From a virus (lineage: Duplodnaviria > Heunggongvirae > Uroviricota > Caudoviricetes), in IMG/VR virus record IMGVR_UViG_3300025735_000005: a stretch of 15,026 nt of DNA, one strand, 5' to 3'. Of this stretch, positions 4,502 through 7,449 are shown one piece after another. Position numbers and translations under genes: made by a program. The notes beneath the pieces are model-generated. The model had not been told where the DNA came from and did no database searches. It saw only the letters and a program-made list of their open reading frames with translations. Position 1 is the stretch's first letter, and every line of letters starts with the position of its first letter.

Positions 4502-5200
4502 TTAGACAAAGCAATACTCTGAATCTAGCACTAGAGACAGATCTAGAGTACCGAATTGCACTTCACTGATATCGCCCTGAATAGCTTCCATAATCTCGCC
4601 AAGCGGATCAGCATAGTACAACTCTAAGAAAGTTTTACGAATTAATTTAAACAGCTCTGGCATATCTGCAAGCAGACAACCAAAGCTATCATGAATTGTT
4701 GTAATTGGAAAATCAGCTTGTGCTACGGTCATTGTCAGATGAGCAGCGTCTAGCGAGTGGATAGCATTAGGGCTAGCTCCTGAGACCTGTTTACCTTTAG
4801 AAGGCACCTGGTCTTCAATAAAGCAAATTGCCAATTGCAGCGTGTTTTCAAAATACCCAGTGCTTGTTCGTGGCCCTTTAGGAGGCCCGTACTGACACCA
4901 AATCTTCTTGACCTTACCTTCAGTGTAATACTGAATTACCGGAAAATTGGTGATGGGAACTGTCCACCCGAGGAATTCTCCGTTTTCTTCAGCCATTCGG
5001 CCAGCATCTTCAAAAACCGATAGAAGCTGCATAGGTCTTTTTAATGATACTCGGCAGTCTTCATATACTAGTCGGCCAAGATAAGAACCCCAGCGATGCT
5101 CCATAAACAGAAGCTTGTCAATACCATGCTTCTTGCTGTCATCGATCTGCTGCTGCCCCAGCCCAAATGGAGTCCCTCCATAAGGTAGTGTCATTACATT
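4502..5200 (-). CDS. T7-type single-subunit RNA polymerase, exon 2 (232 aa)
   Basis: Begins NVMTLPYGG (second half of motif B) and contains SPNAIHSLDAAHL and motif C IHDSFG. It has no plausible independent start; the 24 upstream codons in the ORF track are intron sequence. Confidence 0.93.
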   Translation of the reverse strand, partial: NVMTLPYGGTPFGLGQQQIDDSKKHGIDKLLFMEHRWGSYLGRLVYEDCRVSLKRPMQLLSVFEDAGRMAEENGEFLGWTVPITNFPVIQYYTEGKVKKIWCQYGPPKGPRTSTGYFENTLQLAICFIEDQVPSKGKQVSGASPNAIHSLDAAHLTMTVAQADFPITTIHDSFGCLLADMPELFKLIRKTFLELYYADPLGEIMEAIQGDISEVQFGTLDLSLVLDSEYCFV

Positions 5201-5907
5201 CAAGTGTGTTAAATAGCTTTCGTTACGAGCTATCAACCTAGATTCGCAAATTCGCCATAGTGTAGCAAGCAAACCTCACAATACTTTGCGTAAGCTTCTT
5301 GAGGATCTTTAAAGAATCCTAGAAATTTATTACGCCCTTCAATCTTAATTTGTGCTACCCATTTTTGTTTTTGCTTATGCCAAGAAACACCCTTATAACC
5401 GCTTTTATTATTAGATTGTTTACCGCGATTAAAATGATTTTGTTGATGAGTACACGCTCTAAGATTTTCAGGTATATTATGAGAACGAATCCTATCGATA
5501 TGATCTATTGTCATCCCTTCAGGGATTGGCCCATTAAATTTTTCATAAATAAGACGGTGCTCAAAGTGATACTTTCCAGCAATGAAGATTCCAATATAAC
5601 CATCATTACGCAAAGTACCTGCAATCGAACCAGCCGGCACATTAGAATTAGGGCTATTTATCCAATATAAGTGACCATCACGATATTCAAATAGATCAAT
5701 GTAATCCATATCTACTCTTTCGGTTCTATACATCGCTGTATAGTTCAGACTATATCATATACCAAAGTTGGTACCCGGGCGCTTCGAGCCACTTGGCTCT
5801 ACGTCTTTCGACTAGTCGTTGCACCTTCCTCTTTCGAGGCTTGGCTCAGGATTGTCTACTAGAGAGTTCCCCTGAGTTCACCCGGTTTTACAAGCGCTAT
5901 GCAATTA
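5201..5907 (-). mobile_element. Group I self-splicing intron (IA2-like, 707 nt) with internal homing endonuclease
   Basis: 5' exon ends in U (AAGCGT), intron ends in G (CACTTG). P1: IGS GCGCTTG (5897-5891) pairs with exon CAAGCGT with a U-G pair at the splice site. P10: ATTGCAT pairs with 3' exon ATGTAAT. P4: CTCAGG/CCTGAG. P7: GACTA/TAGTC. Hairpins P7.1, P7.2, P8, P9 (GCGA loop) and P9.2 are present. Removal restores the reading frame. Confidence 0.95.
5233..5709 (-). CDS. Intron-encoded HNH homing endonuclease with C-terminal AP2 domain (about 158 aa)
   Basis: HNH_3-type IDHIDRIRSHNIPENLRACTHQQN, and AP2-like YKGVSWHKQKQKWVAQIKIEGRNKFLGFFKDPQEA. The ATG at 5709 (after GAAAGAG) is preferred over 5733, which lies inside P9. 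Confidence 0.92.
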   Translation of the reverse strand: MDYIDLFEYRDGHLYWINSPNSNVPAGSIAGTLRNDGYIGIFIAGKYHFEHRLIYEKFNGPIPEGMTIDHIDRIRSHNIPENLRACTHQQNHFNRGKQSNNKSGYKGVSWHKQKQKWVAQIKIEGRNKFLGFFKDPQEAYAKYCEVCLLHYGEFANLG

Positions 5908-7449
5908 ACGCTTGACAATCTTTCGTTTCTCTTTAGGATCAGTAATGCCAAGCCAGTATACTGGAGCAGCGAGATCCGCTATAAGCTTGTTTGCTTCTTT
6001 GAATGCCTTGATCTCTTCTACTAGAAATCGGCGTTGCTCGCTACGCGGCTCAGTTGCATGGATTTGCTTCTTGTAGTCAACGAGAGTATCGATGAATATA
6101 TGGCAAGCTTTAATGTCGTCCTCAGTGTATCCAGAAACTTCTTCCTTCAATCTTTCCCAAACGTGATCTGCAACATATTTGTACAAATCACCAGGAAGAT
6201 CTTGTGGCGTCAAATTAACATGAGGCGCTGTTGTTTCGTCTCTGGTCAGTGCTGTAAGATGCTGGGACCCATTGTTAGATCCATCAATAAATACTTCCAG
6301 CGAGGAGTCAAAATTAAAGTTGTTTGTGTCACCACCAGCACGCATCTGCCACATTCGAATTTTCATGAGCTCATTGCAAGCTGCAAGAAATTGCCATGGT
6401 TTATCAGCCTTCATCCAACCTTGATGAACCTTAGGGCTTTCCGCATAACTTAGCAGAATCTCTTCGTTATCCAGCGTCCATAGGTATCGATCGTGCAGTG
6501 GAATTTTATCTGTTTTCGCGCCATCTGGCCGTCCTGCATCCCCAGCCCAATTAGAGGCTATCGAGACGCATAGCCAAAAGAAACCAGCTTCTCCGATGAC
6601 TTTGCTATCATCTCGTAGAAGAAGCCCGCGCGCCAGATCCGAGCCTTGCTCATGAAGGTACGCCGTAGTGGGGTATTTACGTCCCCGGAAGTCATAGTAA
6701 TAAAGATGGTAAAATGTCTTACCGATAAATCTTCTAGCCAAGTCACCGATAACTTTAGACTCCCGCAGTTTTGTTGCGCGGGCGTCAGGATTTTGTTGTT
6801 CCCAGATATCGGAGAATGCATCTGTCTTATTCTTCAAAGCCCACTTCTGAACCTCGTAGATATCCTTATTAATGCGCCAACCTATTTCTTGAGCCTTGTT
6901 TAAACAAGTGAACAGCATTGGATGGGTTTCAGGCGTAATCTGGTCGAGGACATCGCGACTGCCAGTCTTCACCATAGACATACCGTTCTCATGCTTGGTA
7001 GACATCCAAGGCGCATATGGCTCTGTCGCCGGAAGCTTCTCCGAGCGAGCAGACGCAACCGATGACCAAAGTGAACAGATGGTTTCATCGTCTACGACTT
7101 GAACAATATAGGCAGCATGCCCTTTATTACCCTGCCCCAGCGCCATCTTTGTCATCATGAGCTGCTCAAAAGACCACAGTAAAAATGTACCTGTCTTAGC
7201 GGCAAGACCCGAGTCTCTTTTTAATTTTAATTTTGTTCTGACAGAATGCCCAATCGCAGCAACCATTTCGGTAAGGTATAGCGCCGCGTTTCTATTACCC
7301 TTCTTTGCGCGAGTGTGCAGATACACCACAGAAATTAAAGTATCAAGATATTCGTCAATATCATAATTCTTCAAAAACTTAAGAGGGTTACGTGGGGAGA
7401 TCTCGGTGTTAAGCCTAGACTTAATGCTAGCTTTTAGCTTTTCTCTCAT
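5908..7449 (-). CDS. T7-type single-subunit RNA polymerase, exon 1 (514 aa; spliced product 746 aa)
   Basis: Contains YYDFRGRKY, KPWQFLAAC, motif A IDGSNNGSQH, DLYKYVA, and ends KRKIVKR (first half of motif B). AGGGG Shine-Dalgarno and ATGA coupling at the start. Confidence 0.95.

Follow-up and report, generated by a model that had tools for sequence, protein, structure and literature searches.

A group I intron with an HNH endonuclease gene in motif B of a T7-type RNA polymerase gene from an uncultured phage

The divided RNA polymerase gene

The DNA analysed here is a stretch of 15,026 nucleotides (nt), referred to below as the window. It covers bases 62012-77037 of a viral contig (IMG/VR record IMGVR_UViG_3300025735_000005) that is complete at 79,024 bp and has direct repeats at its termini. 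The contig represents an uncultured phage and comes from metagenomic sequence. On its minus strand, the window carries a gene for a single-subunit RNA polymerase of the T7 type, in two exons that are separated by 707 nt; all positions given below for the gene and its insert refer to this strand. A preliminary description, made from the letters of the window alone, had proposed that the gene is split within catalytic motif B by a group I intron. Exon 1 (7449..5908) encodes 514 amino acids that end in ...KRKIVKR, the last Arg codon being CGT at 5910-5908, and it includes motif A and the initial half of motif B, with the equivalents of T7 residues R627 and K631. The next codon in frame, at 5907-5905, is a TAA stop. 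Exon 2 (5200..4502) starts from AAT at 5200 (NVMTLPYGG) and encodes 232 amino acids followed by a stop codon at 4504-4502. It contributes the second half of motif B (equivalents of T7 Y639 and G640), motif C (HD) and the C-terminal residues ...EYCFV. Ahead of exon 2 there is neither a Shine-Dalgarno sequence nor an ATG; an in-frame TTG is found at 5203-5201, just before the first codon. The exon ends, the junction coordinates and the open reading frame (ORF) of 746 amino acids (514 + 232) that results from joining the exons were all given correctly in the preliminary description.

Both exons match the Pfam RNA_pol profile (PF00940), exon 1 with 111 bits over profile positions 1-141 and exon 2 with 84 bits over positions 163-372. 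Since these ranges follow each other, the exons are consecutive parts of one polymerase. We aligned the spliced product with the polymerases of T7 and of roseophage DSS3_VP1 and found that it retains the equivalents of T7 D537 (motif A), R627, K631, Y639 and G640 (motif B), and H811 and D812 (motif C), as well as the C-terminal aromatic tail. The codons on either side of the break correspond to T7 R632 and S633, and the gene is thus interrupted within the O-helix (motif B).

The intron and its endonuclease gene

The insert (5907..5201) is a group I intron of an IA2-like subgroup. It opens with the in-frame UAA and closes with a terminal G at 5201. A covariance search with Rfam group I models, as the preliminary description had suggested, gave a match to RF00028 (Intron_gpI) at 5959..5726 with 78.2 bits (E 8e-19; gathering score 50), and no other Rfam family was matched in the window. 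Only one register both restores the intron-less DNA and has a U before the 5' splice site together with a terminal G, which fixes the boundaries; intron-less alleles and a homologous intron in a related locus, L003, agree with this identification. We rejected an intein, as the insert opens with a stop codon, contains further stops in the host frame and has a length (707 nt) that is not a multiple of three.

P1 pairs the end of exon 1 (5914-5908, CAAGCGU) with the internal guide sequence (5897-5891, GCGCUUG), placing a U.G pair (U5908.G5897) at the 5' splice site. Rfam's own placement of P1/P2 (5959-5920) was rejected, since it consists of exon sequence and contains many non-canonical pairs; the true P1 lies inside what Rfam treats as an insert. 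P10, read from the sequence, has 7 bp between the guide (5905-5899) and exon 2 (5199-5193). The catalytic core (5726..5885), as delimited by the Rfam match, by reading of the sequence and by a core alignment, consists of P3 (5885-5880/5780-5775), P4 (5876-5870/5851-5845), P5 (about 5866-5854), P6/P6a with a GAAA loop (5844-5824), P7 (5817-5813/5752-5748, GACUA/UAGUC), P7.1 (5812-5803), P7.2 (5799-5786), P8 (5773-5760) and P9 (5743-5726). We place the intron in IA2, a subgroup typical of phage introns, because both a P7.1 and a P7.2 hairpin stand between P7 and the 3' strand of P3. Beyond the core, P9.1 (5725-5722, AACC, with 5238-5235, GGUU) encloses the endonuclease ORF in its loop, and the 3' terminal elements (5201..5233) comprise a P9.2 hairpin (5233-5228/5218-5213) whose loop includes UAACGA and a tail, ...CACUUG, that ends in the terminal G. 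The P9.2 hairpin, its loop and the terminal G recur at the 3' ends of other polymerase introns. All helices listed in the preliminary description can be read; however, its account of the 707 nt as a complete group I core needs a change of emphasis, as 5709..5233 is the endonuclease ORF rather than ribozyme. Over ~170 nt, the core is ~70-74% identical to introns of Aeromonas phages, and it also resembles introns of Staphylococcus phages and others.

Compensatory changes support the structure. We aligned 12 intron cores, namely that of the window, those of ten other polymerase introns from the survey described below and that of a second intron of the same genome, in the large terminase gene (terL). 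RNAalifold predicted 43 pairs, with double compensatory changes in 30 of them, located in P1, P3, P4, P5, P7.2, P8 and P9. At five insertion sites, the P1 guide (alignment columns 30-37/47-54) changes together with the exon sequence that it targets. Covariation in P7.2 extends over all 12 cores, and P7.1 is present in 4 of them. When the introns of the window and L003 are compared directly (71% nucleotide identity), paired changes are seen in P3, P4, P5, P7.1, P7.2, P8, P9, P9.1 and P9.2.

Roughly two thirds of the intron consists of coding sequence. An ORF at 5709..5233 (ATG at 5709, stop codon at 5235-5233) encodes a putative homing endonuclease of the HNH type, with 158 amino acids and a possible AP2-like DNA-binding part. 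A longer version of 166 amino acids (5733..5233) would begin at an upstream ATG at 5733 that falls inside P9; the 158-residue protein is the likely product because the L003 homologue starts at an ATG aligned with 5709. The match to Pfam HNH_3 reaches 62.4 bits (cut-off 24.8), and the catalytic DH...N...NH residues are common to the window and L003 copies. These two endonucleases are 68% identical over 158 gap-free codons, with rates of non-synonymous (dN) and synonymous (dS) change of 0.28 and 1.76. The resulting dN/dS of 0.16 indicates that the gene is, or recently was, under purifying selection.

Relatives, insertion sites and neighbouring genes

IMG/VR searches that used first exon 1 and later an alignment of relatives as the query recovered ~70 loci of the same polymerase clade, with identities of 35-74%. 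The preliminary description had also proposed a hunt for intron-less and other intron-bearing alleles, and both kinds are present among these loci. Most of them have an unbroken gene that reads ...VKR/NVMT or ...VKR/GVMT precisely across the predicted junction (a slash marks the point of insertion here and below). In L003 the insertion point matches that of the window's intron to the nucleotide, and the insert is again exactly 707 nt long. At this site L067 (5013-8420) has an intron of 3408 nt with a homologous P1-P6 start and an identical start of exon 2. The L067 intron contains four ORFs of 80-307 amino acids, starting in the P6 region, and its host polymerase is ~42% identical to that of the window.

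Precise mapping identified five insertion sites in the polymerase clade, all within the most conserved motifs. Besides VKR/NVMT, which is occupied in the window, L003 and L067, these are DFR/GRKY in L071 (2698-3500); FIDG/SNNG, in motif A, in L061 (4682-5391) and L064 (4706-5451); a position inside the catalytic Tyr codon (T/AT) of LPYGG in L030 (5067-5577), L043 (5040-5791), L057 (5061-5775) and L058 (5076-5796); and YGLG/QQ in L050 (2584-3293) and L074 (4910-5690). Every surveyed polymerase intron is preceded by T, has a stop codon at or near its start and ends in G. Six of them score at least 50 bits with RF00028. At an E value of 0.01, Rfam did not detect the introns of L003, L043, L064, L067 and L071, which belong to group I by alignment to the others. 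A gap in L072 (query residues 463-483) was rejected as a further intron, since the reading frame is never interrupted there and the segment has simply diverged.

To place these alleles, we built a quick maximum-likelihood tree with IQ-TREE from 59 full-length spliced polymerases and that of DSS3_VP1, using support values from the Shimodaira-Hasegawa-like approximate likelihood ratio test (SH-aLRT). Ten of the 59 genes have an intron somewhere and 49 have none. The window groups (SH-aLRT 100) with its two nearest relatives, L013 and L014, both intron-less, and L003 groups (SH-aLRT 97) with four intron-less genes. As each of the two intron-bearing genes is nested with intron-less ones, the intron has been gained or lost at this site at least twice. 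This distribution is patchy and points to a dispensable mobile element, and the pattern of five sites is that of selfish elements colonising conserved DNA. Two introns at different sites, those of L043 (5041-5250; Tyr codon) and L071 (2699-2905; DFR/G), have cores that are 85% identical and share the same P1 target heptamer, CTTCCGT, yet their endonuclease ORFs are unrelated; the host phages are closely related. These similarities suggest that a ribozyme may have moved ectopically to a look-alike site, or that ORFs may have been swapped.

The Arg codon that precedes the splice site (5908-5910 in the window) was compared in ~59 related loci. It is CGT in all three intron-bearing alleles, and AGA or AGG in most alleles that are empty at VKR/NVMT. 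An AGA or AGG codon cannot supply the U of the U.G pair, and such codons might also protect against the endonuclease.

The polymerase gene lies upstream of a gene for a protein resembling single-stranded DNA-binding protein and of a family A DNA polymerase gene, all on the same strand; the DNA polymerase gene (487-2478) is uninterrupted. At 746 amino acids the spliced polymerase is compact relative to that of T7 (883), other members of the clade having 743-760. Its closest cultured relative is the polymerase of DSS3_VP1 (Naomviridae), with 34.5% identity and 732 amino acids. A megablast search of GenBank phages with the whole gene returned no close cultured relative, the sole match being 45 nt of the P4-P6 region of the intron (5839-5883). 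In Escherichia phages Bas93 and Bas94, a stretch annotated as part of the gene for DNA polymerase I is 97.8% identical to this segment, and these genes probably contain an unannotated intron as well. Elsewhere in the genome of the window, the second group I intron (G000:C1:28358-28586, minus strand, equal to L001 1501-1729; RF00028, 87.5 bits) splits the large terminase gene, where Terminase_6N lies upstream of it, and contains an Endonuclease_7 ORF. Also outside the window, an ORF of 1552 amino acids (G000:C1:16241-16492, minus strand) gives a weak second RNA_pol match of 15 bits (28 with its neighbours) and may encode a second, virion-type polymerase.

The proposed mobile intron and its alternatives

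We are highly confident that the insert is a mobile, self-splicing phage intron of the IA2 type in motif B of a single-subunit RNA polymerase gene. The proposal that one T7-type polymerase gene is split at this point by a group I intron is borne out by the Rfam match, by the contiguous genes of intron-less relatives, by covariation and by the conserved catalytic residues. The transcript would comprise exon 1, intron and exon 2. On unspliced RNA, ribosomes would halt at the UAA that opens the intron and release a 514-residue fragment without the catalytic Tyr and motif C. Once the ribozyme has folded, with the U.G pair of P1 at the 5' splice site, the P3-P9 core, P10 and the terminal G, the intron would, with free guanosine, remove itself and leave AAGCGU joined to AAUGUAAUG, and the spliced mRNA would yield the full 746-residue enzyme. 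With a stop as the first codon of the intron and an exon 2 that lacks its own start signal, the earlier proposal that splicing is obligatory appears sound for this particular phage. By analogy with other phage intron endonucleases, the HNH enzyme would act on polymerase alleles that lack the intron in co-infecting relatives, cutting or nicking them close to the insertion site, and repair would copy the intron into the cut allele (homing).

Several points weigh against this reading. The phage is known only as a metagenomic contig, and splicing, the target of the endonuclease and homing are inferences. P10 has 7 bp in the window but is weak in L003 and L067. P6 and P7 are invariant in all 12 cores and draw their support from consensus only, that for P7 consisting of the invariance itself and the Rfam consensus. 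The match of the endonuclease to Pfam AP2 (24.5 bits, E 3e-5) falls under the cut-off of 33.3. That Rfam misses the homologous L003 intron shows the model to be an imperfect judge in both directions. Finally, the introns of the window and L003 (71% nucleotide identity) are about as diverged as their host genes (67% amino acid identity), and hence do not show recent horizontal transfer between these two.

Two other accounts of the insert were considered. It could be an endonuclease cassette only, with the polymerase made as two associating polypeptides of 514 and ~232 amino acids, comparable to N4 RNAPII. Two-subunit enzymes of the T7 family do exist (PMC5418858), exon 1 has a clean stop, and the TTG at 5203-5201 stands in frame just ahead of exon 2. 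However, a complete ribozyme with covarying helices surrounds the ORF, the pairings of the internal guide sequence with the exons (P1 and P10) would be purposeless in a cassette, exon 2 lacks a preceding Shine-Dalgarno sequence or ATG, and the break falls inside the O-helix, between K631/R632 and Y639; we regard a two-polypeptide enzyme as very improbable. It is no easier to believe that the intron has decayed, leaving a ribozyme that has lost the ability to splice and a polymerase gene that is defunct or on its way to being so. Decay is the end of the life cycle of homing elements, and some related polymerase introns fall under the Rfam threshold, but here both exons are intact and retain every catalytic residue, as do all core helices their pairing; the endonuclease ORF is undamaged and constrained (dN/dS 0.16), and the genome is complete with terminal repeats.

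A different question is whether the intron serves the phage. The preliminary description had suggested that splicing could gate the switch from host to phage transcription, that is, that the rate or condition-dependence of splicing times the appearance of the phage polymerase. The active enzyme would indeed need prior splicing, and T4 intron splicing reportedly depends on translation and on the growth state of the host (Sandegren and Sjoberg 2007, cited in PMC8541194). Yet the timing cannot depend on the intron in a clade where 49 of 59 full-length relatives, including the two closest, have none, and introns at four other sites in relatives indicate parasitic colonisation of conserved DNA rather than regulatory design. 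We found no support for the suggestion and consider a regulatory gate unlikely. A bolder extension of the mobile-intron reading, which we offer as speculation with perhaps an outside chance of being right, is that the polymerase gene is a battlefield between phages. At least five conserved motifs of the gene are occupied by introns, and cores appear to hop between sites with a shared 7-nt target. By analogy with PhiPA3 gp210, the endonucleases may be weapons that cut the polymerase gene of intron-less co-infecting relatives, in which case a synonymous change of the Arg codon at the site from CGT to AGA might confer immunity.

The preliminary description was doubtful about novelty. This caution was fair. 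A full-text literature search, with most subscription journals outside it, yielded no paper in which a T7-type polymerase gene is said to have a group I intron, but unrecognised examples exist in GenBank. In the N4-like Pseudomonas phage ZC08, a homing endonuclease was described in 2017 as inserted in the RNAP2 gene, in a paper that neither names nor shows an intron (PMC5418858). In the ZC08 record KU356691 (L010:9704-9969), RF00028 matches with 88.9 bits directly after the annotated gene end ...SVHD (motif C), and a short downstream exon is unannotated. The "HNH endonuclease insertion" is a group I intron by Rfam; thus, unrecognised examples were already in GenBank.

The intron of the window is therefore a phage parasite of a familiar type, in a host gene from which the searched literature does not describe it, and the T7-type single-subunit RNA polymerase joins the short list of phage genes that host group I introns. 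For annotators, this provides a concrete reason for "split" or "duplicated" polymerase genes in phage records, such as that of ZC08 or those of phages JWAlpha and JWDelta, which are said to encode "two RNAP2" (PMC4837373). Unless the intron is removed, a polymerase that is called as two ORFs will receive a wrong annotation and a wrong place in trees. Alleles with and without introns at five sites in one gene also offer material on the choice of homing sites, ectopic transposition and endonuclease swapping. The understanding of how group I introns work is unchanged.

Among the closest parallels are the introns of T-even phages. T4 has group IA2 introns with endonuclease ORFs in td (I-TevI), nrdB (I-TevIII) and nrdD, also called sunY (I-TevII), of which I-TevI and I-TevII are GIY-YIG enzymes. 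Together with the DNA polymerase introns of T4-like Aeromonas phages, they share with the window the same core with P7.1 and P7.2 extensions, an ORF that loops out from a peripheral helix, a stop codon shortly after the intron begins and a location inside an essential gene, in a catalytic segment that is conserved. Unlike the T-even introns, that of the window has a single-subunit RNA polymerase as its host gene and an HNH endonuclease with a possible AP2-like part rather than a GIY-YIG enzyme such as I-TevI or I-TevII. I-TslI of PhiI/W31 is the HNH endonuclease of a group IA2 intron within a T7-like phage's DNA polymerase gene. Likewise, the report on cyanophage Pf-WMP3 describes a group IA2 intron with the HNH endonuclease I-PfoP3I in a family A DNA polymerase gene (PMC3428280). 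On that account Pf-WMP3 resembles the window in being a podovirus-type phage whose IA2 intron encodes an HNH endonuclease and is inserted in a right-hand polymerase at a conserved motif. Both of these introns, however, interrupt the DNA polymerase gene, which is uninterrupted in the window.

Three further systems share individual features with the window. In roseophage DSS3_VP1, terL holds a group I intron that carries an endonuclease of the Endo VII type (PMC8323127), as it does in the genome of the window; in contrast, the polymerase gene of DSS3_VP1 is continuous, and the endonuclease of the terL intron is of a different family from that of the polymerase intron. In ZC08, the host gene RNAP2 belongs to the T7 polymerase family and the insertion is a group I intron, but it lies after motif C rather than in motif B, and the host enzyme is of the two-subunit N4 type. 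PhiPA3 gp210 is a multisubunit RNA polymerase beta-subunit gene with a group I intron that encodes an HNH endonuclease, which cuts the intron-less allele of a competing phage and thereby serves competition between phages (PMC11620839). That polymerase is unrelated and its owner is a jumbo phage. In both phages, nevertheless, a group I intron bearing an HNH endonuclease sits within an RNA polymerase gene, in a catalytic segment of high conservation.

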